A DNA stretch of 38,441 bases, taken from positions 1-38,441 of the IMG/VR virus record IMGVR_UViG_3300045243_000029, one strand, 5' to 3'. This document shows, piece after piece, positions 8,932-30,308 of this stretch (its first letter is position 1; each line of letters begins with the position of its first letter). A model generated the notes under the pieces. The model saw only the letters and a program-made list of their open reading frames with translations, was not told the origin of the DNA and ran no database searches. Source of the DNA: a virus. Position numbers and translations under genes: made by a program.

Positions 8932-8948
8932 GAAGTGGGTTTAGTTCG
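8932..8948 (-). promoter_or_regulatory. Late-arm motif copy 1 (minus-strand sense CGAACTAAACCCACTTC)
   Basis: Plus strand reads GAAGTGGGTTTAGTTCG, 12 nt upstream of start codon 8920. Confidence 0.6.
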
Positions 8949-8950
8949 AA

Positions 8951-9766
8951 CTACTGAATAGCGCCGTACTGTGCGCGCTGTGACGGGCTGGCGCTGGTCT
9001 GTCCAGGCGGCTCAGGCCCTTGCGGATTCTGTTTAGCCATGGCTGCTGCCTGGTTAGCCATGATATGCATAGACTGGGCACGGCGCAGCATATCAGGTGG
9101 CATTGGGCTACCCTCGAACCAGGCGGCCAAGCCCTTGTTAAGTATCCAATTAGGCCGGTAATCGGCCTTGACTGCTTTGTGGCTAATCCAGCACGTGGTT
9201 AGCGCGGTCGTAATCGCTTCGGCTACGGACGGGTAAATGGCTTTGACGGCTAGTGCCTGTTTCTTTAGGAGCTGCCCATTAGCGATAAGGCGAAAGACCG
9301 TAAGAGGTTCGTCGATGACCTGTAGAATGGAAAGAAACTTCCAAAACTTTAGATCACTAGGCGGCGCAGTTTCGGTGCCGCCAATGCCCTGCCAGGTCTG
9401 TACCGGCATCATCTTGAGGATTTCGGCCTGGAGCTGGTGCAGCAGGATATTGTAACTGATTCCGAGCCGCGTATACCCGGACGGGAACCGTTCCATACGG
9501 TCCGCGTGCTTGCCATGGTCCTGAATAGAACTAAGCTGTCTAAGACTGCGCCGGAAGTTGATAGGAGCGGGCGCGCGGCTGTCCAGCGACTGATTAAACG
9601 TGGCCTTAGCCTTCATCTCGATTGTGTCGGCCAGGACAGCAGCACGCTTGATCTCGTCAGTGCTAATGTCGGCCTTGCGCTCGCCAGTCAACAGGCCAAC
9701 ACCGGTAATGGTCAATAGGGCTTCGGCCGGGTCAAGCTGGGCGGGAGCATAGCCAAGCGCCGGCAT
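8951..9766 (-). CDS. Hypothetical virion protein (271 aa)
   Basis: Long ORF with a TAATG junction to the upstream gene. Confidence 0.7.
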   Translation of the reverse strand: MPALGYAPAQLDPAEALLTITGVGLLTGERKADISTDEIKRAAVLADTIEMKAKATFNQSLDSRAPAPINFRRSLRQLSSIQDHGKHADRMERFPSGYTRLGISYNILLHQLQAEILKMMPVQTWQGIGGTETAPPSDLKFWKFLSILQVIDEPLTVFRLIANGQLLKKQALAVKAIYPSVAEAITTALTTCWISHKAVKADYRPNWILNKGLAAWFEGSPMPPDMLRRAQSMHIMANQAAAMAKQNPQGPEPPGQTSASPSQRAQYGAIQ

Positions 9767-11412
9767 TACATCCCCTCAGTCAAGCTATGGGCATGCAGTC
9801 CGGCCAGCCGGGACATGATTTGCGGGCTACCATGAATCGCGTGTAGCAGCGCCTTGGCATGTACGTCACCGGCCGCCGCTCGAGCCGCAAGCTCGGCTAT
9901 CTTACTGTGCGCGTTAGCCAGGGTCTTAGTCGCGGACTGTCCCGCTCCGGCCAGACCAGAAGCCGCCTTAGCGCCTACAGCGCCGCCAACGGCCGCCCCG
10001 ATAGCGTGTCCGACACCGGGGATAGGAATAGCCCCGCCAGCCAAGGCGCCGATACCGGCCCCGATAAGCTGAGCTGCATGTCCCTTGCCGGAACTGTTCC
10101 CTGCATTCTCTTTCCAGAACCGCGATTCTACGGCGTCCTGGATATTGGCAAGTGCGGAGTATTCCCGATTATTGGCTGCCAGTTTTTCAACCGAGATTCC
10201 CGCGTCCGGGTGCCGCTCTGCCAGGGCTTCTAGGTCCGACATGAGGAAATCGCGCAGGTTCGTGCCAAGCTTCATCTTGGCAGCCTGAGCAGCTTTCATG
10301 TCCATAATAGTCCGGGTACCGTTCGTTCCTTCCTTCTGTAGGTGGCTGACCCAGGACCGGAAATCCTGGTACGGGATACGGACCTCGTCCAGGTTCTTGA
10401 ACATCTGCCCTACAAGGCCCAGCTTGTTAGCCGTGGCGTTGCTAGCTAGCTTCTGTTCAAGCTCCGGAGCCCATGCCTTTAGCGCGCTGCGCTTAGCGTC
10501 GGCCAAGGTCTCTACAAGCTTCTCGTTTTCAGGGTTCTTAGACAGCGTCGCGATTTCGTCGTCAACGTGGTTGATGAAGTTGTGCAGGCTTAGACCGCCC
10601 TCTACCTTGTCCGCTGCTTTGTAGACGGGGCCGAGCTTGGCGGCAACTTGGCTGGCCCGTTCCTCAACTACCGGTAGCACGTCCTTAGCCGACTCGCGCA
10701 TGATACGCTCTAGCGCGATCGGTTTCTTGCTGGTTTCGGATTCGAACGAAGTAGTAAGTGCCTTGTCAATGGCTTCCGGGTCACGGGCTAGCGCTTTCTT
10801 GATCGTAAGCGTTGCCGAGCCTTTCGTGCCCGACCCTTGCGCGACGTTAGCGGCCCGGTCAGCCATGGCCTTTTCAGGGGCAGACGCCAGTACAGAACTT
10901 AGCCCGTGCGCGGCGGCACCGATACCGGCCCCTAGGCCGAACCCTACAGCCGTGTCCTTGATTGCGCCGCCAATGTCCCGGTTAGGGCCGGTAAGTTCAG
11001 CGGTAGACCCACCAAGAGCAGCGGCGCCACCTTGCGCGCCAAGGGTTAGAGCAGTTTTAGCCAGTCCCGCCCCTTTGGCAATGCCCAGCCCAGGAACAAA
11101 AGCAGAAGCAATACCGCCACCGATCTCACCGCCGCCATATAGGAAAGGATGCGCGGCTTTGGCCTGTTCATTGGCTGCCCTCGACTCGTCCCGGGCTTGC
11201 TGGTAAGTCTTATCGCTGAACAGCGATTCAATGGCTCCGCTAATCTCGTCACTGTATCCGAGCGTAGCCCCTTGGATGACGCCACGACCTAGGCTAGCAA
11301 AGCCACCGGGCTGTTGTGGGGCTGGGGCGGTCTGGGGCTGGCCCGGGGCCTGAATAGACCCAGGGTCCGGCGCAAGCTGGATACTGCCATCGTCAGGAAC
11401 TAGATCGGGCAT
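9766..11412 (-). CDS. Internal virion / ejection-type protein candidate (548 aa)
   Basis: Gly/Ala-rich hydrophobic stretches near both ends (GGGIASAFVPGLGIAKGAGLA, IGAGIGALAGGAIPIPGVGHAIGAAVGG). TAATG junctions at both ends. Confidence 0.65.
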   Translation of the reverse strand: MPDLVPDDGSIQLAPDPGSIQAPGQPQTAPAPQQPGGFASLGRGVIQGATLGYSDEISGAIESLFSDKTYQQARDESRAANEQAKAAHPFLYGGGEIGGGIASAFVPGLGIAKGAGLAKTALTLGAQGGAAALGGSTAELTGPNRDIGGAIKDTAVGFGLGAGIGAAAHGLSSVLASAPEKAMADRAANVAQGSGTKGSATLTIKKALARDPEAIDKALTTSFESETSKKPIALERIMRESAKDVLPVVEERASQVAAKLGPVYKAADKVEGGLSLHNFINHVDDEIATLSKNPENEKLVETLADAKRSALKAWAPELEQKLASNATANKLGLVGQMFKNLDEVRIPYQDFRSWVSHLQKEGTNGTRTIMDMKAAQAAKMKLGTNLRDFLMSDLEALAERHPDAGISVEKLAANNREYSALANIQDAVESRFWKENAGNSSGKGHAAQLIGAGIGALAGGAIPIPGVGHAIGAAVGGAVGAKAASGLAGAGQSATKTLANAHSKIAELAARAAAGDVHAKALLHAIHGSPQIMSRLAGLHAHSLTEGM

Positions 11413-13142
11413 TACTTAGCCGCCTCCCACACTGAGCCGTTCCATACAATAGGCTTACCGCCAGAAGTGGCGCGGGTACCAACTGGGTATTGACTAGCCG
11501 GCGCTGTATGGGTCTGCGCGGCGCCGCCCTCACCATAGCGCGGTACCTCGCCTTGTGGCGTCCGTACCGTCTGGGTACCGAATAGCCCACCGAGCCGCCC
11601 CTCGACGTGCTTAGCCTGAGCAGAAGTAGAAGCAATGCCCCTACCTGTAGCCTGATACTTGTTTATGAGTCCCTGTCTAGCGGCGTCAATCTGCTTAACA
11701 GCATGTTCGTCGGACTGGTCTACTAGGTTAACGATAGCGGTCAGGGTCTGCTTAGACTTTTCAGTGCTGCCCAGTAGCCGGCTAATCTTCTCTCGGGTCT
11801 TAGACGGGTCAGACGTAAGGTCGTCCAGGAGCTGCATCTGTTGATGCGACGGAGCAGCGCCGGTATTGAATCGCGCAATCTGTTCCTTGACGGCAGCCAC
11901 AGCAGGAGCAATCTTGTCCGGGTCATTAGTGGCAATGGCTTCGCGCAGTCCGTTACCAAGCTCGCGGATACCCTGCTGCTTCATGATTAGGCCCGGGGCT
12001 CGAGCCGTGCCCATTAGACGGGATTCGTCCTTATCAAACTCTGCACTGATAGATTTAACGGCCTTTTCGTTAGCGGCTGCTTCCTTCTGCGCTACAGCAG
12101 CGATACGGGCCGTCTGGGCGTTGAACCCTTCAATGCCCAGCTTTCGCTTCTGTATCTGATTCTCATAGGCACGTTGCCTCGCAGCATCCTGCAAGTTAAC
12201 TGACGCTTGCTGTTGGGTCTGGGCCAGGACCTGAGCTTGTGCCTGGTCTACGCGGCCCTTGGCAGCGGCGGATACCTCAAGGACATGGTCAGCAACTGAC
12301 TGATGCAGCGCGGCCATCTGGAACTGTAGGTCATTTAGCTTCGACGCCCAGTTAGCTTTCTGTTCCTCGCCAAGCTGGTTACGGGCAGCGGCGTACTTGA
12401 ACAGGTTATCTATCTTTTCCTTCTGCTGAGTCGCATAGAGCCGAATCTGATTGTCAATTACGTCCTTGGCCGTATTCCCGACGTTCGCGCCCGTAGCAAA
12501 AGCGGTAAGGCCCCGCCCAGCTTCGCCCAGTGCCATGCTGATAGCGGCGGCAACGTGCCGGCCTGAACTGCCATCGTAAAAGTCCGGGATAGTCGTCTTA
12601 TGCGCTTCGTCATAGACCCGTTGCTGGTCCTCGTTAATCCGCTGCACATCCGCATCGCGCTGGGCTTGCAGAGCCTTGATCTTCTCCTGCTGAATCTGCA
12701 TCTGCGCGGCGCCGTGCTCGCGCGCCATGGCTTCGGCTGCTGACTGAGCGGCTAGGGCGTTGCCCTGTTCGGTCTCGGCGCCCTGGATAGCGTTAGACGC
12801 GGCCTGTTGCCGGGCTACTTCCTGGTCAAGTGCTGGTACTTTAATCCCGCCGCCGCCCGTCCCTGTAGCCACATTGGGCGTTTCCTGGACAGGAACCATA
12901 CCGTTGCTGACCGGTGCGACCGGAGCGCTAGTAGGTGCTTGCTGGGGAGGCGCCGGGACGGGCGGTGCGAGGCTTGGAGCGACTACCGGCGGCGGCTGAT
13001 AAGCAGCGGCCTGGGCGGCGGCGGTATCGGTAGCGGACTGGACTACGGGCCGCGCGTTAGGGTCGGTAGGGGCCAGTTGCGGCGCGAACGGGTCTAGGGG
13101 CAGCGGCGCATCGGGAATCCAGTTACCGTTCTGGTCGAGCAT
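11412..13142 (-). CDS. Internal virion protein candidate with a long coiled-coil region (576 aa)
   Basis: Pro/Ala-rich N-terminus, then heptad-like QMQIQQEKIKALQAQRDADVQRINEDQQR and further coiled-coil stretches. Confidence 0.65.
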   Translation of the reverse strand: MLDQNGNWIPDAPLPLDPFAPQLAPTDPNARPVVQSATDTAAAQAAAYQPPPVVAPSLAPPVPAPPQQAPTSAPVAPVSNGMVPVQETPNVATGTGGGGIKVPALDQEVARQQAASNAIQGAETEQGNALAAQSAAEAMAREHGAAQMQIQQEKIKALQAQRDADVQRINEDQQRVYDEAHKTTIPDFYDGSSGRHVAAAISMALGEAGRGLTAFATGANVGNTAKDVIDNQIRLYATQQKEKIDNLFKYAAARNQLGEEQKANWASKLNDLQFQMAALHQSVADHVLEVSAAAKGRVDQAQAQVLAQTQQQASVNLQDAARQRAYENQIQKRKLGIEGFNAQTARIAAVAQKEAAANEKAVKSISAEFDKDESRLMGTARAPGLIMKQQGIRELGNGLREAIATNDPDKIAPAVAAVKEQIARFNTGAAPSHQQMQLLDDLTSDPSKTREKISRLLGSTEKSKQTLTAIVNLVDQSDEHAVKQIDAARQGLINKYQATGRGIASTSAQAKHVEGRLGGLFGTQTVRTPQGEVPRYGEGGAAQTHTAPASQYPVGTRATSGGKPIVWNGSVWEAAK

Positions 13143-13145
13143 GGG

Positions 13146-13973
13146 CTAGTACTGCCCCGGCCCGCTATTACCTGCTCTCGGCGGGTTATACACGCCATTG
13201 CTGTAACTGGACTGGTACGGGTCCTGAGGCTGATCGCCAGCCGTCAAGGACGCGCCGTAGCCGGGCTGGGCAGCGCTGTAAGCGTTAGGGGTGGCGCCGC
13301 CATACCCCGCCTGCTGAGACGCAGCGTAGCCGGGCTGGGCAGCGCTGTAAGCGGCGCCGGCATTGCCAGCAGCGGTACCAACCGCACCGGCAGCAGGGCC
13401 GCCCAGGGCAGCAGCTCCAAGGGTCCCGGCCGTGGACAGGAGCGTGCCAGTAGCGGCCATTTGGGCGCGCTGGTTAGCCTGGGCAATGGACGTAGCCATG
13501 CCGGCATAGTTCTGGGCCCCGCCCAGGGCCGTACCGTACCCGCCCATGCTGCGCTGACCCATTGAACTGTACAGGCCCCCGAGTTGATTCTGAGCGGACT
13601 GGATCTCCTGGGCCCTAAGCACGGCCTGTTGCTGGTTCATCTGGGCGCCGGCCTGTCCCGCTTGCAGCATGGCGCCGTAATTGGCTAGCGCGGCGTTAGA
13701 GCCGGACGCGCCGGCTACTTGACTGGCCTGGTTACGGTTCTGCTGGTCAAGACCGGCGACAAGTTGGCGCTGGGCAACGCTGGGCGCGCCGGTCCCGGCA
13801 ATCTGATTTTGCAGCATCTGGCCGTAGCCGAGCTGCCGCTGATAGTCCTGCTGTTCTCGAGCGGCGTACTGCGCGGACTGCTGCTGCAACAGCGCTTCCT
13901 GTTGCTTGACGTTGGAGTCACTGATCGGGTCAGCGCCGAACAACCAGGACGCAAGTCCGTCAAACACACCCAT
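13146..13973 (-). CDS. Gln/Ala/Gly-rich low-complexity virion protein (275 aa)
   Basis: Long ORF with the late motif directly upstream of its ATG. Confidence 0.65.
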   Translation of the reverse strand: MGVFDGLASWLFGADPISDSNVKQQEALLQQQSAQYAAREQQDYQRQLGYGQMLQNQIAGTGAPSVAQRQLVAGLDQQNRNQASQVAGASGSNAALANYGAMLQAGQAGAQMNQQQAVLRAQEIQSAQNQLGGLYSSMGQRSMGGYGTALGGAQNYAGMATSIAQANQRAQMAATGTLLSTAGTLGAAALGGPAAGAVGTAAGNAGAAYSAAQPGYAASQQAGYGGATPNAYSAAQPGYGASLTAGDQPQDPYQSSYSNGVYNPPRAGNSGPGQY

Positions 13974-13979
13974 GCTTAT

Positions 13980-13996
13980 GAAGTGGGTTTAGTTCG
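13980..13996 (-). promoter_or_regulatory. Late-arm motif copy 2
   Basis: GAAGTGGGTTTAGTTCG on the plus strand, 6 nt upstream of start codon 13973. Confidence 0.6.
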
Positions 13997-14205
13997 GGCA
14001 AGGCGATAGCCCTGCTTAGAGTCACATTACAGTAACCCAAAGTCATACTACCATGAAGCATTTATTCAGCCTTCCCAGGCGCCCGTCTTACCGGGCCAGC
14101 GCTGATCTGGCCTATGTACCGTGGCCCCCCGGAGCGTTCTAGCGCGGTTCCTGCTATCTTACGGACCCGGCCAGGCTAGGGGAATTCATTGGCGGCGGCT
14201 ACTGT

Positions 14206-14222
14206 GAAGTGTGTTTAGTTCG
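14206..14222 (-). promoter_or_regulatory. Late-arm motif copy 3 (one mismatch)
   Basis: GAAGTGTGTTTAGTTCG on the plus strand, in the 300-nt intergenic gap. Confidence 0.5.
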
Positions 14223-14271
14223 GTGTCTATTAAGATAGACAATTGCCTTTGAAAGCAACTGTATGTTATCT

Positions 14272-14562
14272 TTAAACATTCCTAACCCCCATGTTACAGA
14301 ATCGGCACAACAACTGCCTATCTCGTCCTGTATAATGGAAGTGATCTCGAGCAAGTCTTTCCGGACCGGGCGCTAGTTCGCAAATAGCACAGCAACCGTC
14401 CTGCGCCCTAAGTCTGGTCTCATATTCCAGGTCTGTTAGTCGTCGCAGCTTAGACGGAAACTTGGTTTTTACCGTACGCGCCTTACGCCTAACTGGACCT
14501 GGGCGCATCCGATGCTTTAAACAACCACTGGGGACGGCCATGCATCTATTATACCATAGCAT
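14272..14562 (-). CDS. Endonuclease VII-like HNH protein (up to 96 aa)
   Basis: DGCCAICELAPGP...ARDHFHYTGRDRQLLCRFCNMG core. AT-richer than the flanks. The start is uncertain (M1, M8 or M19). Confidence 0.7.
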   Translation of the reverse strand: MLWYNRCMAVPSGCLKHRMRPGPVRRKARTVKTKFPSKLRRLTDLEYETRLRAQDGCCAICELAPGPERLARDHFHYTGRDRQLLCRFCNMGVRNV

Positions 14563-14656
14563 CGGGATGGCGCTTCATACACGAACCTGCCCTGTGTATC
14601 GCGAAAGTTCTTGTACTGTACAGGAACAGGGTAGTTTAGGCACAGGAGAAATTGCC

Positions 14657-15277
14657 ATGCTCGCCTACCACAACGACCCCGCAGTCAAAGCGAAGTACCT
14701 CCGTCGTGTACGCGCCCACGCCAAAGCTGACCGTATCATCCAGGGAACAGGCTGGGACAACGGCCGAGGCTGCGCCATTGGCTGTACGCTAGAGGCTTAC
14801 GACCATGCGCGGTACCCGATCGAGTTGGGAATCCCGGTGGGGTTGGCGCGGCTGGAAGATCAGATCTTCGAGCGACTGCCCGAGTCCGAGGCGATGAAGT
14901 GGCCAGCGGCGTTCCTGTCTGCGATTCCAGTGGGGGCGGACCTCACGCTGGTCTGGCCGCGGTTCGCACTGTGGCTGCTGCGGGGGGGTCCGGAGCGGTC
15001 GCTTGAGCTACCAGCCGTCAAGTCAGCGGTGGATGGCGTGGCCGCGCTGTTTGAGCGGTGGGTGAATACGGGCGATAAACCGCCAGTCGCGGACTGGCGG
15101 GCAGCACGATCCGCCTCCTCCTCCTCCTCCGCCTACGCCGCCGGCACCGACTACGACGCCTACGCCGCCTACGCCGTGGACGCCGCCTACGCCCATCGTA
15201 GCTTCTGGAATGCAGCAGCCAAGGAACTACTGCGGCTCTTGCGGGCGCCCTCACCCGAAGAGGGAGAGCGGACGTGA
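14657..15277 (+). CDS. Hypothetical protein (206 aa) on the opposite strand inside the structural operon
   Basis: AGGAG lies 8 nt upstream of ATG 14657. Sequence MLAYHNDPAVKAKYLRRVRAHAKADR..., with an SSSSS-AYAAGTDYDAYAAYAVDAAYA low-complexity stretch near the C-terminus. The longer listed ORF from 14462 overlaps the Endo VII gene. Confidence 0.7.
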   Translation: MLAYHNDPAVKAKYLRRVRAHAKADRIIQGTGWDNGRGCAIGCTLEAYDHARYPIELGIPVGLARLEDQIFERLPESEAMKWPAAFLSAIPVGADLTLVWPRFALWLLRGGPERSLELPAVKSAVDGVAALFERWVNTGDKPPVADWRAARSASSSSSAYAAGTDYDAYAAYAVDAAYAHRSFWNAAAKELLRLLRAPSPEEGERT

Positions 15278-15334
15278 CGCGATGTGCACCTATCTGGGAA
15301 ATGGGCAGGTTAGGTACGATGTCGAAATCACTAC

Positions 15335-18300
15335 CTAGACCCGGTGTCCGCTCGGGACCTGCTTCTGTCCCGGCTGCAACCCGACCTTAGCCGCTAGTAA
15401 CTCTAGCGTACAGGACGCGCCCGGGTCTAGCCCGTCATGGTTGATGCTGATATGTACCCCAAACTGACTTGCCTTGCCATGTCCAGGAATAGCCTCAATT
15501 AGATAAGGCTGGCCCGCAACCGGCACGAACCTAGGGCAGTCCGTAGGGTCATCCGGGAAGTCATCCGGGTACGTAAACGTCAGGTCCATGTTATGCGCGG
15601 CGCGGTACTGGCCGATAACCTGTATGCGCCAAAGCCGCTGAAAGGCACGAACAGAGCCGAAGCTAATTCCGGCCATGTCCACGTCCCAGTCAATCGGGGT
15701 TACGCCGTTATCGGTAGTGTCATTGACGGCGCTGGACTGCTGCATAACGAACGTGCCCATACGGGCAATCAATGCGCCGTTGAAGACCGTCAACTTACCG
15801 ACGTTACCAGGCAAGGTCTGTTCCGACCACAGGCCAGATACAGCGTCGTAGACGATAATGGTCGTCCCGGTACCAAACGCAATGCGCTGGTCCCGGTCAA
15901 TGACGATAGAGGTAACTTTCCGACCAGACGCTGTCATGGCCTTGAATTGGTTAACCATGGGCTGAGACAGGAAGTCATTAGTTAAGGACCTAGTATCAGT
16001 CCAGATACCTCCCGCGCTAGAGGCGTACATGACCCCTGCCGCAGTAGTCAGGGCCTGTCCAGTACAGCCGTTAGTAAAGGGTAGTGGAATAAGGGTCGGG
16101 ATAGGAATCTGACCGACATCAATCAGGGCCGCGCTTGGCAGCGCCGTTGCCGGTAGGTACCAATGGCTACGCTCGCCAAGCACAATCAGGAACTGTTGCA
16201 TGCCCCGAACAGCGACGGCGCGGTCACCGGGCGGCGCGGACACAATGAAGCCAGGGAACCAGTTAGGCCGTGTCCCATCGGTCAGTGGCGTACTAAAGCC
16301 GATGCTTCCATCGGGCAGGACAAACCAAAGCCGGTCGTTCCAGGTCTCCATGTCAGAGCAGGCCGGGAAGCCGAACCGAGGCAGGAACGACAAGGAATAG
16401 TCCTGTTCATTCTTCTGGATAATCTGGTCCGTGTTCTGGTCCAGGTAAGTGAACTGGATATGACTGGTGCCAGTGAAGTTAAAGCCCGACGGGTTGCTGG
16501 CACTAATCGGAGCCGTAGCATTCGGCAACAGGTCGTTAGTAATCTTGTACCGGGTAGTAGTCGGTATGCCATTGACGTAACTGGTACGCTCTACGTTAAG
16601 CGTAAGCGGGGACCGGTTCGTAATCCCGTACTGTCCCGTAATCTGGTCCGGTGTAGTATTCCACGGCATCGGCAAGTCCCCGCCGATTACGATTTGCGCG
16701 TCAGTACCGGTCAAGGACACTTCCAGTGGCGGGCTAGGAGGGGAGAAGACCCGGTTACCCTGGCTGTCCTTGCCTTCCCAGATAAAGGTATAGACATACG
16801 TCCCGCCAGTTTTTAGCGCCAGGTCGGTAATGCCACCGGCCGGACCGACGCTTACCAGCCACGGGGCTTCCGGTGCCAGGGCAAAGCCGTCTTCTGGAAA
16901 TGCGTCCTGCTCGAAGCTGACCGTAGCCGTACCAGACAGATAATGTCCGGTTCCAAGTCCGGTATCAGTTTGGATAGTCCAGCACTTGATTCCGACAGTA
17001 CCGGAACCGGCTAACTGCTGGTTATCATTGACGGTACTGACCCGCTCCTGGGCCGTCGGGCACATGACGGTATAGGTGCCGGACACGTTCAAAACGTCCG
17101 TGATATGTCCCATAAACTGGTTAGCGCCGAGCTGCCGCCAGTTGTTATAGGCCGTCAACCGATCAAACATGCCCACGAACGCGCGCTTACCAGTGGCAGG
17201 TACAAAGAAGAACGTGGGCTGAAACGGGCTGGTATTGGCGACGGGAAGGTAAATGGTTACGTTGTCCGGGGGGTCAACCAGCGCTTGAGCCTGGATGTCG
17301 TCCGCCTGGACTACTCTTTCAGTGTAGATGACGCCGCTCAGGTCAGGCTTGTACCCGGTAATCCGGTACGTTCCAGTAGCAGCCGGGTTGCTGGAATTGA
17401 ACAGCAACAGCGCTCCAATGAACCGAAAAGGGTTAGTAGTCAACTCAGCAGTCAAGTCCTGTAGCAGGAACGTGAACGGCGGGCTGTCAACGCCAAGCTC
17501 GAGGCTTACTGTCGGGAGATGACCAGCAACAAACTTTTCCGTTACCTGTCCAGGTTCGGAGCCGGTTACGATGGTAGTCGAAGTATAGGACGTAACCGGG
17601 AACGAGCCGTTATTCCCGTCGTTAACGTCGCCTGACACGTCAAGCGTGGCGCCGGTCCCGGTGCTAGAAAAGTCATTGCCGCCGTCCAGGAACCAGCTAT
17701 TCGGTACCAGCGGAGTCAAGACACGGGTACCGGCCGTACTTGCCGTGGTCTGTGCCGACCAGGGAACCCAGACGCCGCTAATCGGGAATCCGGTACTGCC
17801 CCATACGGTAGTAGGGTCGGAGTCGTCAACGCCAGTCACGCGCGTAATCAGAGCGTTACTAATGTTGTTTCCGGAACTGGTTCCAGTGGCCGTCAAGTGA
17901 CCGCCTACGAAGATGTCACTGGACGTGCTGCCAAGCTTGGAAATGACATCGTCAGGACCTGCTCCGGTAGCTTGCGTGCTATAAGCCGCCTGGGCAATGA
18001 CCTGGAACAGTCCAGCCGCATTGAACGTACCAGGAGTCAATCCCGTTCCGGTTCTAGCAACGGTACGGGTATAGATATGTCCGCCCGCGCCGCTGCTGCT
18101 GCCCATGACGGTCCAATGCCCATTAGCACCGGTCACGCCAGTACTACCCACCACTGCCAAGTCACCGCCTCTTGACGTTACGGTGCTGATACCCGGCCAG
18201 TTTCCCATGTGCCAGTCAAGTAACGGGGTGCCGGCGGGAATGCCCGCGAAGTCACCGGCTCCGGTACTAGTCGTGGCGGCTACCGTGTCGGTGTTAAGAA

Positions 18301-19786: not shown

Positions 19787-19791
19787 GGCGG

Positions 19792-20046
19792 CTAAAAATA
19801 GTTCTTGACGGCTACGGGGACGATGTCATTCTGTCCTTGGAGGATACGAACATGACCTTGAGCCAGACGGTAGAGCGGATTTTTCTGTCGTATTCCAGCC
19901 TTGGAATAGTCTCCATGAACTGGGGCAAGTTCAGAGATATTTGCAGGAAAATACTGAAGTCGACAGGGACTGCCGAGCCCAGTTCTAGAATGGTTAACGA
20001 GCTTGCCTTGGCTGCGCATAGCCGAGCCGTCCAGGAAGAGCTTCAT
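19792..20046 (-). CDS. Hypothetical 84-aa protein; strand assignment is ambiguous
   Basis: Fits the operon gap exactly: its ATG is 2 nt after the upstream stop, and its stop is 5 nt before ATG 19786. No SD. GC3 counted by hand is about 48%. Confidence 0.4.
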   Translation of the reverse strand: MKLFLDGSAMRSQGKLVNHSRTGLGSPCRLQYFPANISELAPVHGDYSKAGIRQKNPLYRLAQGHVRILQGQNDIVPVAVKNYF

Positions 20047-20052
20047 CGCTAA
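19852..20052 (+). CDS. Alternative antisense 66-aa ORF in the same gap
   Basis: GGAGGA lies 7 nt upstream of ATG 19852. GC3 counted by hand is about 62%. Amphipathic-helix-like sequence. Confidence 0.4.
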   Translation: MTLSQTVERIFLSYSSLGIVSMNWGKFRDICRKILKSTGTAEPSSRMVNELALAAHSRAVQEELHR

Positions 20053-20411
20053 GCCGACCAGCGCTTTCCATCTGCGTTAACAGTCAGGCTCGAGCCGGGC
20101 TGTACCGCGCCGAATACGGTCAGGCTGTCAGCCGTCCGGACACTAACCGGGTAAGCGCTGTTATTGACAATGCGCGTCGACTGATTAGACGGGGGCTGGT
20201 TCGGCAAGGTCAAGGTCACGGGCTTGAAGGCTTCAGCCGTCACTGTAACCGTCGTCTGGCGGCCCAGGATAGCGCTGGACGAGATAGTCAGTGACTGGGG
20301 GGGCCGGAGCTGTTCTTGTAGGCCCCGCACAGCCTGGGCCACGTCCTGGCTCAGCCTGTCGATGTCCTGGTTACCGGTGCGCCGGTCCTGGAAGGGAACT
20401 GTAACTGGCAT
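20049..20411 (-). CDS. Hypothetical virion protein (120 aa)
   Basis: ORF in the late operon. Confidence 0.65.
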   Translation of the reverse strand: MPVTVPFQDRRTGNQDIDRLSQDVAQAVRGLQEQLRPPQSLTISSSAILGRQTTVTVTAEAFKPVTLTLPNQPPSNQSTRIVNNSAYPVSVRTADSLTVFGAVQPGSSLTVNADGKRWSA

Positions 20412-20489
20412 TAGAAGTGAACCAGGTAATCAATGGCGCCTTGCAATACGCCGATGCAAGGACGAAGATTCATGGCTAATTCTACCACG

Positions 20490-21749
20490 TTACCAACCTC
20501 CATCACCATACACGCCACTATCAAAGTTAGGACTGTCAATGCCCTGGCCGAATGGGCCGCCGGCAATAATCGGGACCTGACGCAGGTCGGAGTCGCGCTT
20601 TTCCGACATACGAACGGCTCGAGCCATTTCCCGGTCAAGCCTAGCCTGTAGCTCGCCTACCCCTTCTTCGTACTTTATCCGTACCGAGATTGACGCGAAC
20701 GTCTTTAGGTAAAGCTGCCACGGGGTCAAGACCTGGGGCAGGTCGGCACGGGTACCCGGGGCAGGAGTAGCTACGGCTACGGTCCCGGTCGGCGGGGTCT
20801 GGAACGTCCCGAGCGATTCAGGGTCAGGAGTGACTTCGATCTGCTGACCGGACAGGACGGCCGTAATCGTATATGGAACGTTAAAGACCGAGTTAGACAG
20901 GGCAGCAATAGAAGCGGTACCACTAGGCGGGGACGTGAAAGCACCGAACGTCCCTGTAGCTGGAACCGTCGTAATTGTAGTTGGGCTTAGCACTGAAGCA
21001 ATCGTCCAAGCAACATTGAAAGCAGTATTAGGGGCAGCGAAGTTAGGCGTGATAGTCCCGCCGACATCCCCGGCCGTGAAGTTAGCGTTAGACATGGCCC
21101 AGCCAATCCCGCCGGCAGTAGTATCAGCCGCGTCAATAGCAAAGGACCGGGTCACCTGGGTAAAGGACGGGGTTAGTACCGACCCGACCTCACCAGCAAC
21201 GAAGTTAGCGTTATTGAACGTCCAGCCGAAGGGCTGCGTAATGTCCGAAGCGTTAACCGCAAAGGTCCTGGTATCTGGCACTGCCAGGTCCAGAATCTGT
21301 TTCTGGTACCAAAGCCGATACTGTCCCGAGCTTTGGCTGTACGGGTACAACCTGATATTCGTGTCCTGCACTTCATACTGCCGGGAATAGAAAGCGCTGC
21401 CCGGCACAAGTACCGCGCCGTAAACGTACTTGTTACGGTCAAGGAACGTGGGCAGCCGACGGATAGTCAAGGGCCCGATAAAGCCGGGCGGGTTCAGCCA
21501 ATCCAGGCCCAGGTCTACCTGGAAGTCGTCCGGGACAGCAGTGAAACAGGTAGCAGCCGTATCGCCGGCAAGTGTGAAGTCAAAGCTGGACTGGAACCAG
21601 TGCGGGAACGCGTCCAGGAAGATATCGTACAGGGACTTAGCCCCGTCGGACAGGTACTGCGCTACTTCGGCACGGGGCAGCGTCGGGTCAGATACCCGGT
21701 CAGTCTGCTCAAGGACCTGGTCAATCAGGGAGTCAACAGAAACGGACAT
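20490..21749 (-). CDS. Hypothetical head-tail/virion protein (419 aa) with internal repeats
   Basis: Long ORF. Repeated FxxNANFxAG(D/E)VGxxxTPxF segments. TAATG junction with the upstream small ORF. Confidence 0.75.
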   Translation of the reverse strand: MSVSVDSLIDQVLEQTDRVSDPTLPRAEVAQYLSDGAKSLYDIFLDAFPHWFQSSFDFTLAGDTAATCFTAVPDDFQVDLGLDWLNPPGFIGPLTIRRLPTFLDRNKYVYGAVLVPGSAFYSRQYEVQDTNIRLYPYSQSSGQYRLWYQKQILDLAVPDTRTFAVNASDITQPFGWTFNNANFVAGEVGSVLTPSFTQVTRSFAIDAADTTAGGIGWAMSNANFTAGDVGGTITPNFAAPNTAFNVAWTIASVLSPTTITTVPATGTFGAFTSPPSGTASIAALSNSVFNVPYTITAVLSGQQIEVTPDPESLGTFQTPPTGTVAVATPAPGTRADLPQVLTPWQLYLKTFASISVRIKYEEGVGELQARLDREMARAVRMSEKRDSDLRQVPIIAGGPFGQGIDSPNFDSGVYGDGGW

Positions 21750-21910
21750 TATCGGTCAGCTACCGTTCTGCCGCTGCTACGTTCCTTGCGGGCCTTGCGC
21801 TGTACCGCGTAGCCGATAGCCACGGCCTGTTTCACGGGCCGGCCCGCTTCAATCTCCCGCTTGGTATTGGCTACTCGAGCGGCGTTCTTGGCACTGTTAA
21901 TGAGCGGCAT
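21749..21910 (-). CDS. Unlisted small basic ORF (53 aa, MPLINSAKNAARVANTKREIEAGRPVKQAVAIGYAVQRKARKE...)
   Basis: Hand-translated. GAGGA lies 5 nt upstream of ATG 21910. The TAA stop overlaps the ATG of 20490-21749 (TAATG). Confidence 0.55.
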   Translation of the reverse strand: MPLINSAKNAARVANTKREIEAGRPVKQAVAIGYAVQRKARKERSSGRTVADR

Positions 21911-21917
21911 AGGTCCT

Positions 21918-21958
21918 CAAAAGAAACGGGCCGGCCAGTTTACAAGGCTGACCGGCCC
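21918..21958 (-). terminator. Intrinsic terminator after the capsid gene pair
   Basis: In the minus-strand transcript: an 11-bp stem GGGCCGGUCAG/CUGGCCGGCCC (one G-U pair), a 9-nt loop, then GUUUCUUUUG. Confidence 0.7.
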
Positions 21959-21982
21959 GGGTCGGAGACAAGTTAGGCTAGT

Positions 21983-22384
21983 CTAGTTACTGGCCATCTT
22001 GCGAACGATAAGATGAACGCGGATAATGTCGCCGCTGGTCAGCGCGGCAGCAGTCCCAGCCAGGTTACGAATCTGGAACGACACAAGCGGGTCAGACCCG
22101 GAAGTAATGCTGTTCGTGACCAGGTTAGCAAGGTACCCGTGCGTGGCATCGAACGTGCCCTGTTGGACAGTGACGTTATAGTCAGCCAGTGCCACCCACG
22201 GGTCCGACAAGTGGAAGGTATACAGACCGGTGCCGGACAGCACAGGCTCGCCAAACCCGTTAGACTGGGTCAGGCTAGCATGGGTCGGAACAGCGCCGGA
22301 CGTGCCGGCAGTGAACTGACAGAACAGGTCAGCTAGGCCCTTGTCTAGGCTGCCCCTGTCAGTGAAAAGGAATCGGTTAGCCAT
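21983..22384 (-). CDS. Hypothetical capsid-associated protein (133 aa; decoration or minor head protein candidate)
   Basis: Immediately follows the major capsid gene and precedes the terminator. Confidence 0.7.
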   Translation of the reverse strand: MANRFLFTDRGSLDKGLADLFCQFTAGTSGAVPTHASLTQSNGFGEPVLSGTGLYTFHLSDPWVALADYNVTVQQGTFDATHGYLANLVTNSITSGSDPLVSFQIRNLAGTAAALTSGDIIRVHLIVRKMASN

Positions 22385-22402
22385 GATTAGTCCTTGCCGC
22401 TA

Positions 22403-23647
22403 TTACGCGCGAACGGTAAGCATGCCGTTATGGCCCGGCGCGGTGCAGTAAATGAATGCCTGGCTACGGAACCGGGTAATACAAGTGTCCGACGCAGGGT
22501 CTTCCACGATCGGGCTTCCGTTGCTGTTGATGGGCCGAATCGGCGTGTTACCCGGGCTCGAGATGAACCAGGTAGAACGGTCAAGCACCGCGACAAGGTT
22601 ATCCGGCCAGTTGCTGGACTCGACGATATCGAGCAGGCCAGTAACGCCCTGGATAGAAACCGTCTTAAAGTAGACCGTAATACCAGGGCCCTGAATCTCG
22701 CGGGTCTCGACGTAACGCTTCTGCGTCTGACAGTCGCTGAGAATCTTGGCCTTGTTATTGGTCGACATCAGGAGCGTATCCGGCATCGCGCCGGGGACGT
22801 TCGCAATCTGAGCCTCAAGGGTAAGAACCCCCTCGAGAATGGTCCCGGCAGTGCCGTCCAGGTACGACCCGGCAAGCTTCTGCTCGTCAACCGACCGATC
22901 AACGCCATACAGCGTGGTAGCCGAAACGGGGCGGGACGCGGCCGGGGGGATCCAAACAGGAATGCCAGGGTAAGTCGTGAAGGCGGTACCGGTCGCCTGA
23001 GTACCGGACTGGCCCATAAAGTACGTAGCGGTAGGCGTGAAGCTGGACCGCGCCGTCAGGGTAATGGTCTTGGTCCCAACGTTCACGTTCGTGATAAGGC
23101 CCGTGCCGACCTGGAGCGTGCCAGCAGCCGTGTCCTTCTGGGTCACGACCATGTTAGGACGGAACCGGAGCACTTCCGACTGAAGCGCGAAAGTAACAGT
23201 CCAGGTAGAGCCGGACGTATTCGTCGGGGTGACGATAACGCCCAGGGTACCGTAGCCGTCGCTGGCCAGCGCAACGTCCATGCCGTTCTTAGCACTGTTG
23301 ATGGCCTTTTCCGACTCGTCCATAAGCAGGACGGCCGCAGACTCGGGACCCTTCGTGAACTGGTTCTGGTCCAGAGGGACCCGCGACAGCCCGTAGCCCT
23401 TAAAGGGCGTGACAAGGAACTGAGCTCGGTTGACAAGGCTGGTATTGGCCAGTGCCGTCGCGTAATCAGCCGACTGCCCGCCGCCAAAGCTGAGGTCAAT
23501 CACGACCGCGTGGCTCGAACCAGACTCGTCACTCTTCTGCATCAGGCCGAAGATCGCGCCGTAACGCGATCCCCAGGTCATGTCGGCTAGTCCCTCGTGC
23601 AGCGACGGGATAAGCAGGTCGTTAACTGCGGTATCGAAAAATGCCAT
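22403..23647 (-). CDS. Major capsid protein candidate (414 aa)
   Basis: Positioned after portal and scaffold. Size and composition are typical. No motif-level proof. Confidence 0.75.
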   Translation of the reverse strand: MAFFDTAVNDLLIPSLHEGLADMTWGSRYGAIFGLMQKSDESGSSHAVVIDLSFGGGQSADYATALANTSLVNRAQFLVTPFKGYGLSRVPLDQNQFTKGPESAAVLLMDESEKAINSAKNGMDVALASDGYGTLGVIVTPTNTSGSTWTVTFALQSEVLRFRPNMVVTQKDTAAGTLQVGTGLITNVNVGTKTITLTARSSFTPTATYFMGQSGTQATGTAFTTYPGIPVWIPPAASRPVSATTLYGVDRSVDEQKLAGSYLDGTAGTILEGVLTLEAQIANVPGAMPDTLLMSTNNKAKILSDCQTQKRYVETREIQGPGITVYFKTVSIQGVTGLLDIVESSNWPDNLVAVLDRSTWFISSPGNTPIRPINSNGSPIVEDPASDTCITRFRSQAFIYCTAPGHNGMLTVRA

Positions 23648-23665
23648 CTAAGTTACCTTTGCTAA

Positions 23666-24574
23666 TTAGTTGCTGCGCTTAGCAGCGCCGGCCTTAAGGT
23701 CGGCCTTAATCTGTTGCCAGGACCGTTTGGTACCGGCAGGAGCGGCCACTACGTTAGTCTTAACGGTGCTGGTCACGCTTCCCTTAGGAAGTGGGTTTAG
23801 TTCGGCAGGAACGGCGCTGGCAAGCTTCTGATCCTGTTTCTTGAGGTGATAAGCTACAAGCTTGTCCTTCTCAGTCTCGTTAAGGTCCCTACCCAGGTCA
23901 GTAACTAGAATCTTGTAAGCTGACTGAGCGTACTTGAACGCAGCGGCAACCTTGTCAGGGCTGTTCACGTTCGGGTAAGCCGGGTCGGCAATGATGGCAG
24001 CGACGGTCGCTTGCTTGTTAGCTTCGGCCTGAGCCTGTGCCGTCGCTGCCAGGGACTTAGCGTTATCGGCGGCGCGGTCAGCTCGTTCCTTTTCTAGTTC
24101 AGCCCTGAGCTTGTCAGCCTCGGTAGGCTCCGACGGGTCCCCGCCAGTTGCTTGCTTGATAACCTTGTCCAGGGGCATGCCCAGGACTTCCATTGCCTTG
24201 AGCGGATCGGTCTTGAATAGCTCGGCAGCCTTAGCGGCGCGTTGCTCGAACGTTTCAGGCTCAGTGACTACGGCTGTTTTGGTTTCGGCAAGCTCCGTAG
24301 CTTTGGCGGACGCAGCTGCGATAGCAGCATCGTCCAGAGCGGCACCAGCGCCGGGTCCTGTCCCAGGTGCGGCCACGGCCGGCGCAGTCGCGGCAGCAGT
24401 ACCGGCAGGGGTAGCCGCTTTGGCGGCAACGGTGGCGGCAATGCGCTCCGCGTTAGTCTTAACGGGCTGGTCATGTACCTCACCAGTGACTTTAGGAGTA
24501 AGGCTAGTCGGTTCATTAGGGGTAAATACAGGCTTGCCAGCTTCGGGAGTAACGGTAGCGGTATCAGGCATCAC
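23666..24574 (-). CDS. Scaffolding protein candidate (302 aa)
   Basis: Ala/Lys/Glu-rich helical low-complexity protein between portal and capsid genes. Confidence 0.7.
   Translation of the reverse strand: MMPDTATVTPEAGKPVFTPNEPTSLTPKVTGEVHDQPVKTNAERIAATVAAKAATPAGTAAATAPAVAAPGTGPGAGAALDDAAIAAASAKATELAETKTAVVTEPETFEQRAAKAAELFKTDPLKAMEVLGMPLDKVIKQATGGDPSEPTEADKLRAELEKERADRAADNAKSLAATAQAQAEANKQATVAAIIADPAYPNVNSPDKVAAAFKYAQSAYKILVTDLGRDLNETEKDKLVAYHLKKQDQKLASAVPAELNPLPKGSVTSTVKTNVVAAPAGTKRSWQQIKADLKAGAAKRSN
23788..23804 (-). promoter_or_regulatory. Late-arm motif copy 4, inside the 3' end of the scaffold gene and about 140 nt upstream of the capsid ATG
   Basis: GAAGTGGGTTTAGTTCG on the plus strand. 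In the scaffold frame it encodes AELNPLP. Confidence 0.55.
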
Positions 24575-24582
24575 TATCCTTG

Positions 24583-26424
24583 TTATTGGGTCGGGATATT
24601 AGCGGGAAGGGTCGGGCCTTCCGGAGCGGCGCCGCCAGGAGGAGGAACAGCGCCAGGGCCGGCCATACCAGGCGCCATAACAGGCGGCGGCTCGGCATCG
24701 GCCAGCATTTCGTCGACGCTGGCCAGGTATTGATAGAGCAGTGACAGGCGGTCCGGGTCTAGTTCGTGGCGGGTCTCATACTGGATGCGGGTCTGGCACT
24801 TGGTGAACGCTAGGCGCAAGTCACCAACGCCGGTCGGGGGCAAGTACTTGCCCGTTTCGATGATCTGGTCTAGCTGCCACGTAACCAGGTCGGAACTGGC
24901 CGTCATCTGGTCTACTTCGCCATCAATATCCGGCATGCCCTCTAGGCGGGTCTTAGTCTCGGCACTGATACGGTTCTGCGCAAAGGCCCGGTCAATCCAG
25001 TCCTGCCGGCCTGCAACGGACTGGGGAATGGACGACATCGGGAAAGCCCGAATCTTTACGTCCTTGCTAAAGCCGGGGTAGTCAATAGCCTGCTTAGCCT
25101 TGCCGACCAGGACCAGTTTAGGCTTGATCTTGCGGGCTGCTGCAATCTCGAGATAGCCACAGTCCTCGATAAAATCTTCTAGGTGCTGTAACAGCGGGAC
25201 ATGGCGCCGGTCATCAATCTGGTCCTGTGCTAGACGGGCCCGGCCTGATGCATCGGCGCCGACACCGGTACCGGCAACCTGCTGTTCCGACACACCCCAT
25301 TGGTCCAGGATGCCCCGCTCTAGTTCAGCGTGGTAACGGAACTGGTCTTCAGTGATAACGGTCGGGGCAATGAAAGCCGGGGCCATGTCCTTGTTATAGT
25401 GAAAGAACATGCTCGAGCCGGCGGCAATCTCTCCCTCGTTAACGCCGCTGTTCTTGATAATGCCGACCCGTGGCCAGCCCGACCTAACCATGTTCTCTTC
25501 AATGGCCCGGCTAAGCCTGTTGTGGGCCCGCTGCATTGGCAGACTGTCCTCGACTAGTCCCTTACCCCAGTAGCCCAGGGGCTGACAGACCAGCTCGGCC
25601 CAGGGGAAGCGCTCGATCTCTTCCCGTTCGCACTTGAGCAGGCAGTCACCAACGGTCAGAGCATGAACTCCACAGTCCTTGTCGCCCTTGTGATAGCCGT
25701 CGCGAAGCACAATGACGTCGCTGGTATCGACAGCGCCGGAATAAGCAAAGCCTAGTTCGGCCGGGGGCGCGAGCAGTATTTCCTTGGCCTTGTCCGGGAA
25801 CATGTCGGCCACGACGTAGCGGTTACAGAACAGGCGAATAACAGCCGTCTGGACGTCATTAACGCTGGCTTCGGTCGGGTCAATGATTAGCTCGTCAGGC
25901 TTAATGACGGTGCGGCAAATCTCTTTACCGTCCAGACCGGTATCAATCTTGAGAAAGCCCTTGCCGGCACAGACACTGTCAAAGCCGCATTCCTCTACTT
26001 TGTCCCAGAAACCGTTCGCATGCAGCGCGTCCAGGTAACGGGTTTGGGTCTTAGCTTCATCCCGGCTGTCCTGGTTACCGGCATCGGGACAGACCTGGAG
26101 CGCTACCCGGTTCTTATAGACCCGCGCGTTAAGGGCCGAATAGGCCATGGCCAGAATGTTCTTGACTGGCGCCGTCCACTTAGCCCGGCCGTACCGGTTA
26201 GCCTCGACTGGCCGGGTAACGCAACTGTAGTTGTAAGAGAAGTACCCGGGCCGGCCTGTTAGGTAACGGTAGTAGCTGAGCAGGTCAAAGCGGCGGCCCC
26301 ACTGGTTAGCTTCAATCTTGTTACACCATGCCGTCATCTCGGCGCCGATATTGGCGTCTAACGCGAGCCACCACCGTACCGTAGGGGCTACAGTCTTGTT
26401 CCCGATCCGATACGGCAGGGCCAT
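24583..26424 (-). CDS. Portal protein candidate (613 aa)
   Basis: About 600-aa ORF lying between the large terminase and scaffold genes, separated from the terminase gene by the 91-aa ORF 26427-26702. Confidence 0.75.
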   Translation of the reverse strand: MALPYRIGNKTVAPTVRWWLALDANIGAEMTAWCNKIEANQWGRRFDLLSYYRYLTGRPGYFSYNYSCVTRPVEANRYGRAKWTAPVKNILAMAYSALNARVYKNRVALQVCPDAGNQDSRDEAKTQTRYLDALHANGFWDKVEECGFDSVCAGKGFLKIDTGLDGKEICRTVIKPDELIIDPTEASVNDVQTAVIRLFCNRYVVADMFPDKAKEILLAPPAELGFAYSGAVDTSDVIVLRDGYHKGDKDCGVHALTVGDCLLKCEREEIERFPWAELVCQPLGYWGKGLVEDSLPMQRAHNRLSRAIEENMVRSGWPRVGIIKNSGVNEGEIAAGSSMFFHYNKDMAPAFIAPTVITEDQFRYHAELERGILDQWGVSEQQVAGTGVGADASGRARLAQDQIDDRRHVPLLQHLEDFIEDCGYLEIAAARKIKPKLVLVGKAKQAIDYPGFSKDVKIRAFPMSSIPQSVAGRQDWIDRAFAQNRISAETKTRLEGMPDIDGEVDQMTASSDLVTWQLDQIIETGKYLPPTGVGDLRLAFTKCQTRIQYETRHELDPDRLSLLYQYLASVDEMLADAEPPPVMAPGMAGPGAVPPPGGAAPEGPTLPANIPTQ

Positions 26425-26426
26425 AG

Positions 26427-26702
26427 CTAGTTAACCTGTCCCTCACCGAGTAGGCCAGGCAGGACACTGTCCCCGACCATGTCCCAAGCTTCCGTCTCTT
26501 CTTCGGCGCTGGGCCGGCGCGGTTCCTGTGACAGGTCAGCCCGGGGCGATGCTAGTCCGGGAAAGGCCGACTTAGCCGGCCCGTCTAGTTCCAGCGTCAG
26601 GCCATGCCAGGAAACTGACCGGATCGTGACGGGACTTGCGGCGATTACGCGCAGAAACTTAGCGAACGCGCGCGGATCTGGTAGCTTTGTCGGTCCCGCC
26701 AC
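26427..26702 (-). CDS. Hypothetical protein (91 aa), GTG start
   Basis: ORF between terminase and portal. The late motif fills the spacer upstream of it. Confidence 0.55.
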   Translation of the reverse strand: MAGPTKLPDPRAFAKFLRVIAASPVTIRSVSWHGLTLELDGPAKSAFPGLASPRADLSQEPRRPSAEEETEAWDMVGDSVLPGLLGEGQVN

Positions 26703-26705
26703 ATA

Positions 26706-26722
26706 GAAGTGGGTTTAGTTCG
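26706..26722 (-). promoter_or_regulatory. Late-arm motif copy 5
   Basis: GAAGTGGGTTTAGTTCG on the plus strand. It occupies nearly all of the 24-nt spacer between the terminase stop and GTG 26702. Confidence 0.6.
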
Positions 26723-30234: not shown

Positions 30235-30264
30235 ATATGGTCACATATGGTCACATATGGTCAC
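30235..30264. repeat. Three perfect tandem 10-bp repeats, ATATGGTCAC
   Basis: Read directly, in the divergent intergenic region. Confidence 0.95.
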
Positions 30265-30308
30265 TTAGTACTATTCGGCAATGATAATCGCACGATACGA
30301 TAGCTAAT

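Follow-up and report, generated by a model that had tools for sequence, protein, structure and literature searches.

Bacteriophage T7, as Dunn and Studier are reported to have described in 1983, carries the class III promoters phi6.5/phi9, phi10, phi13 and phi17 together with the Tphi terminator. In phiEco32 and 7-11, unrelated sigma-dependent late-promoter motifs have been shown experimentally to occupy the same genome positions, and the single-element promoters read by phiEco32 gp36 start transcription 6–8 bp downstream of the element (PMC8948821). Short oriented repeats of other kinds have also been described: Cluster K mycobacteriophages carry 13-bp start-associated sequences (SAS) of unknown function, all in one orientation and 3–7 bp before start codons (PMC3203893). 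The phiKMV-like phages have four copies of a 19–20-nt nick-site consensus, and in the group of phages tf and LUZ24 the nick sites lie on one strand and are similarly placed in relatives, for which co-evolution of nickase and site has been proposed (PMC3517423). The core of the nick consensus was the only repeated intergenic motif found in LUZ19 and had no apparent relation to transcript abundance (PMC3604761). Here we describe a 17-nt motif in the virus record IMGVR_UViG_3300045243_000029 of IMG/VR, a stretch of 38,441 nucleotides that we call the window. Its five copies ahead of the structural genes are a genuine signal. We give an even chance to the reading that the motif is a phage-specific, single-element core late promoter with T7-like placement, in which we infer the promoter action on DNA, the start site and the reader.

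Five copies of one motif in the late arm

The minus-strand genes from about 30.1 kb down to 2.8 kb form the late arm of the window. The plus strand reads GAAGTGGGTTTAGTTCG exactly at four places and GAAGTGTGTTTAGTTCG, with one mismatch, at a fifth; read in the late sense these are CGAACTAAACCCACTTC and CGAACTAAACACACTTC, and all five copies have the sense of the minus-strand late genes. They are placed as follows.

26706–26722, minus strand: exact motif copy, starting 4 nt past the TerL stop and ending 3 nt before the GTG at 26702
23788–23804, minus strand: exact motif copy in the 3'-terminal part of the scaffold gene, with the capsid ATG at 23647 following 140 nt on
14206–14222, minus strand: motif copy with one mismatch, between the HNH gene 14272–14562 and position 13973, at the 5' edge of a conserved non-coding stretch
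13980–13996, minus strand: exact motif copy, 6 nt before the ATG at 13973
8932–8948, minus strand: exact motif copy, 11 nt before the ATG at 8920, with TAAGGA coming after it

The GTG at 26702 opens a gene of 91 aa that precedes the portal gene. The ATG at 13973 opens a gene of 275 aa (13146–13973), the first of the presumed internal-virion-protein block, and the ATG at 8920 opens one of 227 aa, with which a block begins that ends in the presumed tail-fibre genes.

A scan of both strands of the whole window with up to three mismatches yielded no further copy. The chance expectation was 0.06 copies, and none of 100 shuffles reached five. A wider scan gave five sites at 0–1 mismatches, none at 2–4, and background on both strands from five mismatches upward; with so clean a gap, the motif set is discrete. 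The early arm held no copy in these mismatch scans, and no sequence complementary to the motif was found in the genome. The initial annotation had described a sense-only motif in five copies, three of them close to start codons, one in the gap upstream of 13973 and one embedded in the scaffold gene about 140 nt before the capsid ATG, with nothing on the opposite strand or in the early arm. The analysis agrees on each point and puts the distances to the three start codons at 11, 6 and 3 nt.

The genes and signals between which the copies lie are these.

26727–28211, minus strand: TerL
24583–26424, minus strand: portal
23666–24574, minus strand: scaffold
23648–23787, minus strand: presumed capsid-transcript leader of 140 nt, overlapping the C-terminal codons of the scaffold gene
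22403–23647, minus strand: SU10-type gene of the major capsid protein (MCP)
21918–21958, minus strand: intrinsic terminator, a 12-bp GC stem followed by GUUUCUUUU (z = -2.6)

The late arm also encodes a presumed nozzle protein of 1483 aa, presumed internal proteins and fibres. In the direction of late transcription, a motif copy is followed by the small gene, portal and scaffold; the next by the capsid gene and the terminator; adaptor and nozzle follow with no motif of their own; then come the motif or motifs ahead of the internal proteins, and a last motif ahead of the fibres. The terminator stands after the capsid gene and a 133-aa gene and closes the capsid unit. Its 12-bp GC stem and z-score mark it as real; in the initial annotation, it and the scaffold-embedded copy would together frame a capsid-specific unit. 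Positions 1–127 and 38315–38441 are identical over 127 bp, which probably reflects the overlap of a circularly closed assembly, with a complete genome of about 38.3 kb. Given this overlap, we took the genome as closed and its gene inventory as complete.

Lineage-specific motifs at homologous sites

Searches of isolated phages (INPHARED) by DNA, capsid protein and portal protein returned no match, and 43 metagenomic homologues of the capsid protein were found. We compared 25 related loci and defined 12 related metagenomic lineages, whose MCP identity to the window is 42–90%. Every one of the 12 has its own repeated motif of 9–20 nt at homologous sites. The initial annotation had proposed looking at equivalent junctions in related phages; there, the positions are kept and the sequence changes by lineage, as the following motifs illustrate.

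SGAACTAAACCCACTTY: the window, L001 and L006
GCGGGGAATTCGGCA: L002/3
CCCAAAYAGCAATCAACACA: L004
GACTAAGCATACC: L005
CTCAGTTCCGCTGTTTAGG: L007/L135/L136
GCAACAAATCCC: L008
CAACCACTTAACCGTTC: L009/L145
CCACGWAATCCCTR: L140
CCACGAATCCCCTA: L142-144, with close variants in L138 and L139
AAAAGCCGAW: L131/132
CGAACGCAA: L137

Three sites are held in common. Site 1 lies directly past the TerL stop, ahead of the small gene that precedes portal, and carries the lineage's own motif in L002/3, L004, L005, L007, L008, L009, L137, L140 and L142-144. Site 2 lies 80–160 nt upstream of the capsid ATG across the 12 lineages. Site 3 lies directly upstream of the homologue of 13146–13973, the first internal-virion-protein gene, and is occupied by the motif of the respective lineage in L002/3, L004, L007, L008, L009, L131, L140 and L144. 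In the window, L002/3, L006, L007 and L008, site 3 comes after an island of opposite-strand or mobile genes. Additional copies stand ahead of the fibre block (window and L006) or of a small-terminase-like gene (L007, L008, L140 and L142/144); the L006 copy at 14204 precedes the homologue of the 227-aa protein, like the window copy at 8932–8948.

All 40 tabulated sites lie on the late sense strand. Of these, 27 finish -1 to 11 nt ahead of a real start codon, another 11 are capsid-site copies, and two precede a non-coding stretch. Among the 27, the gap from motif to start has its mode at 6 nt, and the start codons are GTG in 13 cases and ATG in 14. The gap is often constant within a lineage (6, 6 and 6 nt for three of the four copies in L144; 6 and 6 in L009; 4 and 4 in L131; 8 and 8 for two of the three in L008), and the start-adjacent sites mostly have no space for a Shine-Dalgarno sequence. 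The sense strand of the motifs is poor in G (15% versus 30%, p = 2e-5), and G-containing bases such as TAAGG, AGG or TGG often come next; the Shine-Dalgarno core AGGAG is absent from the motif sequences. Promoters of the T7 group similarly have a G-poor sense strand and then G-containing bases.

At the capsid site the distance itself is conserved: the stretch from motif to MCP ATG measures 90–141 nt in all 10 lineages examined, and in L007, L008, L140 and L144 the stretch before the ATG is non-coding, strongly folded and 90–119 nt long. Strong hairpins are predicted at 9886–9931 of L007 and in the capsid leaders of L008, L140 and L144. The predicted fold of L140 and L144 pairs the bases before the capsid ATG, including a Shine-Dalgarno-like AAAGGAC, with an upstream segment. 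Such hairpins, as modelled, may control capsid translation or mRNA stability.

The motifs of different lineages are not wholly unrelated. The window's GAACTAAACCC and the CAACAAATCCC of L008 are the same at 8 of 11 positions, and AATCCC is common to L008, L140 and L144. This visible kinship suggests that motif specificity drifts rather than jumps, as it seems to do from the sequences compared. As a separate observation, GGAACTAAACCCAC, a 14-nt match to the window-type motif, occurs at 9987–10000 of L002 and 5125–5138 of L003, despite their own motif being GCGGGGAATTCGGCA; it adjoins the capsid ATG, overlaps the scaffold stop codon and is too long for chance. Wider searches brought no relatives to light: the exact 17-mer had no match in IMG/VR, the 15-mer core had at least 120 single chance matches in metagenome contigs with none from a relative, and GTDB genomes searched by capsid profile and the 1483-aa protein contained no relative. 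The capsid gene of one relative sits in a metagenome-assembled genome labelled Terrimesophilobacter, which is weak evidence of a host.

Comparison with the closest relative indicates what is being conserved at the scaffold copy. The window and L001, whose capsid proteins are 90% identical, keep GAACTAAACCCACTT exactly inside the scaffold gene, at 15 of 15 nucleotides. Around it, an insertion of one nucleotide before the motif and a deletion of one after it place the two copies in different reading frames, and the scaffold peptide at the motif reads AELNPLP in one and GTKPTLS in the other, in a protein that is otherwise conserved. The same nucleotides in shifted frames mean that selection acts on the nucleic acid: judged from this alignment, the motif is selected as nucleic acid and not as peptide. 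An in-frame internal start after the scaffold copy was considered and set aside: only the window and L001 have it, and L004, L005 and L009 lack it.

A further feature is bounded exactly by two of the copies.

13997–14205, minus strand: conserved non-coding stretch between the motif copies at 14206–14222 and 13980–13996; counterpart in L006 at 8503–8710

The spacing of the two copies is 226 nt in the window and 225 nt in L006 (8486 and 8711), and the stretch between them is 75% identical in the two genomes and holds no conserved open reading frame (ORF). Its consensus fold, from the same two sequences from which it was derived, has 47 pairs, 14 of them compensatory, against 0–2 in slid controls; the terminal stem opens 4 nt past the first copy and closes about 10 nt short of the second. 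Folded alone, the window stretch does no better than its own shuffles (z = -0.9), and it matches no Rfam family. From this covariation, 13997–14205 is probably a small structured RNA with ends set by the motif, and such ends would fit either transcription starting or cleavage occurring just after the motif. The small HNH/Endonuclease-VII-like gene 14272–14562 (minus strand) lies just upstream of this motif pair, and a related L006 gene, 8735–9199, lies just downstream of its counterpart; it looks like a mobile nuclease that settled on either side of one regulatory spot.

Candidate readers and the surrounding genome

Two helix-turn-helix (HTH) proteins come into question as readers of the motif.

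35149–35559, plus strand: 136-aa HTH protein, the reader proposed earlier, not supported
28859–29563, minus strand: 234-aa HTH protein, candidate reader, of a conserved family upstream of TerL

Pfam and PHROGs scans of ORFs, including every ORF above 300 aa, returned no match to RNA polymerase or anything related, in agreement with the earlier remark that no phage RNA polymerase is visible, and no Sigma70 domain was found at E <= 0.1 in the proteins scanned. Known phage sigma factors are as little as 15% identical to each other (PMC8948821), and at such divergence the absence of a sigma factor is not proven. The 1483-aa protein was considered as a hidden polymerase and rejected: it is rich in Thr, Gly and Ser, has 13.6% charged residues and no conserved DxDxD, and its composition is that of a beta-rich tail protein. 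No match among PDB sequences came from either HTH protein or from a profile of the 1483-aa protein.

The initial annotation had put forward the 136-aa protein as reader. It gave only a sub-threshold HTH_23 match, and homologues were found in none of the 25 related loci, including L004, in which the stretch compared runs unbroken from primase to terminase, and in none of the IMG/VR proteins. Clustering all ORFs from all loci revealed instead one conserved non-structural family upstream of TerL, to which the 234-aa protein belongs. Its members stand one to three genes upstream of TerL in 13 related loci, and the family is rare, with 20 representatives among 1.8 billion proteins. Its pattern, LPxxYxxRxFLIxWAxxGxxxxAARxxGxxxxxxRxxxxRF, resembles sigma region 4 by eye; part of the family has a Cys/His cluster, and 3 of 28 members gave matches, all to the generic HTH_28. 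The AlphaFold model of the 234-aa protein is poor (pLDDT 56), with one confident helical domain at residues 100–150 (about 80), and Foldseek with this model found no significant match. Downstream of this HTH gene comes the first motif copy in L007, L008, L140 and L142/144, where that copy directly precedes the next gene, the small-terminase-like one. L008, L140 and L142 combine similar recognition helices with similar motifs, but they are close relatives overall. The 28859–29563 protein is a better candidate than the 136-aa protein, as an unproven lead; it could equally be a packaging protein.

Several other features were noted along the genome. The AT-rich divergent region separating the early and late arms contains iteron-like tandem repeats at about 30235–30265 (ATATGGTCAC, three times) and 30309–30343 (GACAATTGGTGACAAT-type), as well as a sigma-70-like promoter at 30313–30284 directed into the late strand; the region of about 30235–30343 may be an origin or operator region. 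The minus-strand TTG ORF 30251–30541 appears spurious, a plus-strand ORF at about 30429–30698 being the likelier gene by eye; if it is real, the early arm begins about 400 nt to the left of the first large early ORF. The early arm has a tRNA-Leu gene with anticodon TAG at 32458–32531 (plus strand). Two paralogous early genes, 1768–2478 and 34329–35159 (plus strand), encode pentapeptide-repeat proteins and contain long runs of 15-nt repeats; the product of the former has a DUF5758 C-terminal domain (Pfam), and that of the latter a similar C-terminal sequence. Inside the late arm lies an opposite-strand ORF, 14462–15277 (plus strand), with a 9-nt tandem repeat, at 15102–15193, inside a C-rich stretch. 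It is 55% identical to an L002 gene that stands at another location and there on the late-sense strand, and it is probably a mobile accessory gene.

Weighing a late promoter against other readings

As a late promoter, the motif would be a single contiguous element of about 13–20 bp, read in one orientation, with transcription beginning about 0–7 nt downstream of its 3' end. At most sites the transcript would start at or just before the ATG or GTG and the mRNA would be leaderless or nearly so, which would account for the lack of Shine-Dalgarno sequences. The capsid-site transcript would begin with a folded leader of about 90–160 nt, continue through the capsid gene and end at the terminator 21918–21958. 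The five copies would create separate boosted late units for portal and scaffold, capsid, the small non-coding RNA, the internal virion proteins and the tail fibres. Host polymerase would be redirected by a small phage protein co-evolving with the motif, in the pattern of the phage sigma factors of phiEco32 and 7-11; in a complete genome with no recognisable RNA polymerase, the host polymerase is the most likely enzyme.

Several observations fit this arrangement. The downstream proteins have conserved N-termini, reading MGVFDGL in the window and similarly in L004 and L002; the start codons are therefore right, and an RNA encoding these proteins must begin inside or just after the motif. Near-equal use of GTG and ATG is what transcription beginning on the purine of the start codon would give, and with an opposite-strand or mobile island before site 3, late transcription would need to restart there. 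The capsid copy, away from any start codon and in four lineages followed by a folded non-coding leader, is more readily taken as a transcript 5' end than as a translation signal. The initial annotation had spoken of a late promoter or activator site: a functional, phage-specific cis signal tied to late units stands, whereas an upstream activator is hard to fit at the start-adjacent copies, where start codons come -1 to 11 nt after the motif. This leaves a core promoter, or else a signal that the RNA itself carries.

Other points weigh against a promoter. Neither an RNA polymerase nor a sigma factor was recognised by Pfam or PHROGs, a contiguous element of 13–20 bp abutting the start site is atypical of bacterial sigma-dependent promoters, and the gaps in the window vary (3, 6 and 11 nt). 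The motif of L004 and L009 lies in tight co-directional gene junctions and would also be present in read-through RNA. There is a precedent, too, in that the only repeated intergenic motif of phiKMV-like phages marks nicks and is unrelated to transcript levels (PMC3604761).

The T7 phi10/Tphi analogy drawn in the initial annotation holds by position. As in T7, copies stand ahead of the portal and scaffold, capsid, internal-protein and fibre blocks, and a terminator comes right after the capsid unit; as in the T7 group, the element is contiguous and asymmetric, of about 17–23 bp in that group, identical within a genome and different between related phages. Unlike T7, the closed 38.3-kb genome yielded no gene for a single-subunit RNA polymerase, the copies abut start codons where T7 leaders are longer and have Shine-Dalgarno sequences, and the capsid copy lies inside the scaffold gene. 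With phiEco32 and 7-11 the window shares SU10-type capsid and adaptor families. phiEco32 has a single conserved element. The unrelated motifs of related phages at the same positions are matched here by turnover in 12 lineages, and the modal gap of 6 nt, measured here to the start codon, is compatible with the element-to-start distance of 6–8 bp in phiEco32. In those phages a phage factor redirects the host polymerase, and by analogy the same is proposed here. However, the elements here run to 9–20 nt where those have 9 nt, a sigma-70-family protein is not detectable, the early region differs, the genome is half as large, and the present system is known from sequence alone.

It is possible, though we consider it doubtful, that the motif acts in the RNA of long late transcripts, either as a start-associated site that stands in for a Shine-Dalgarno sequence and recruits the ribosome or a phage translational regulator, or as a cleavage site for a specific endoribonuclease that frees downstream cistrons, the capsid mRNA and the small RNA bounded by the copies at 14206–14222 and 13980–13996. 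The 27 start-adjacent sites occupy the position of a ribosome-binding site, mostly with no Shine-Dalgarno sequence; the motifs are sense-only, G-poor and A/C-rich, are unpaired in three of five predicted local folds, and would be contained in read-through RNA at the tight junctions of L004 and L009. The structured RNA whose stem begins 4 nt after the first of its two copies is what two processing sites would produce. SAS offer a known parallel (PMC3203893): they too are short and asymmetric, keep one orientation, stand a few bases ahead of starts and are conserved across subclusters. Yet 11 capsid copies and two at the non-coding RNA are not start-adjacent; in L004, L005, L007, L008, L009, L140 and L144 the capsid copy, 80–160 nt from the ATG, adjoins no start, and in five lineages it lies within a translated gene, where ribosomes would displace a bound factor. 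SAS differ further in carrying an AGGAG Shine-Dalgarno core that pairs with 16S rRNA, which the motifs here do not, and in lying in the non-structural arm, at 93 sites across Cluster K genomes (PMC3203893), as against 2–5 copies here, all in the structural arm and one of them conserved far from any start. A hairpin signal is rejected because the sites have no common fold, and pairing with an antisense or small RNA because the genome holds no complementary copy; moreover, the Pfam and PHROGs scans recognised neither an RNA-binding protein nor a ribonuclease.

Two DNA-level alternatives appear much less probable. The motifs could be sites for a phage nicking enzyme, marking localized single-strand interruptions in packaged DNA like those of T5, phiKMV-like phages and phage tf, and we rate this as quite improbable. 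The motif sites lie on one strand only, at three to five per genome, and are lineage-specific words of 9–20 nt at similar positions in relatives, properties that the nick sites of tf and the LUZ24-like phages share (PMC3517423); as with those, the consensus is shifted among relatives, and in phiKMV-like phages the nick sites are intergenic. The window encodes His-Me finger nucleases, namely the HNH gene beside the copies at 14206–14222 and 13980–13996 and an Endonuclease VII at 1160–1729. But nicking gives no reason for the placement of 27 of the 40 sites at start codons, the kept distance of 80–160 nt to the capsid ATG, the T7-like promoter layout and unit boundaries or the confinement to the late arm, and synteny between the HNH gene and the motif is not kept across lineages. 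Least probable in our judgement are DNA sites for a factor acting on elongating polymerase, either a repressor roadblock, as in the stoperators of Cluster A mycobacteriophages, or an antiterminator loading site such as ops/RfaH or the lambda Q binding element. The sites are indeed asymmetric, orientation-dependent and spread along one operon at gene junctions, and in four lineages the first copy comes just after the gene of the conserved HTH protein, part of whose family has a Cys/His cluster; in lambda, the Q gene is located before its site, which recalls this order. However, stoperators belong to temperate phages with a repressor and lie in both arms, oriented with transcription, whereas here no integrase or immunity repressor was seen in the Pfam and PHROGs scans and the early arm has no copies. 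Elongation control also leaves unexplained the missing Shine-Dalgarno sequence after the motif and the near-equal split of GTG and ATG, and the site past the opposite-strand island would need an initiation signal anyway.

A phage-specific late signal is a known kind of element; what is unusual here is the lack of a recognisable polymerase or sigma factor, the abutment of start codons and the turnover of sequence at fixed positions. A more specific form of the late-promoter reading, which we think unlikely, is that this family of small podophages has a T7-like specificity not described before: a small co-evolving phage protein, possibly of the 28859–29563 HTH family, would direct host RNA polymerase to an element of about 13–20 bp that abuts the start, giving leaderless late mRNAs and a motif-bounded structured RNA, or an unrecognised phage polymerase would do so instead. 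For metagenomic phages the pattern offers a simple rule by which late transcription units may be annotated: a word repeated within the genome is sought after TerL, about 100–150 nt before the capsid gene and before the internal-protein block. Strict linkage to start codons would be a novelty among both nick sites and RNA signals, should the motifs turn out to be one of these. If they are promoters, this uncultured phage family naturally offers nine or more different promoter specificities at fixed positions in the genome, and with them a compact system for promoter-reader co-evolution and a possible source of orthogonal expression parts.

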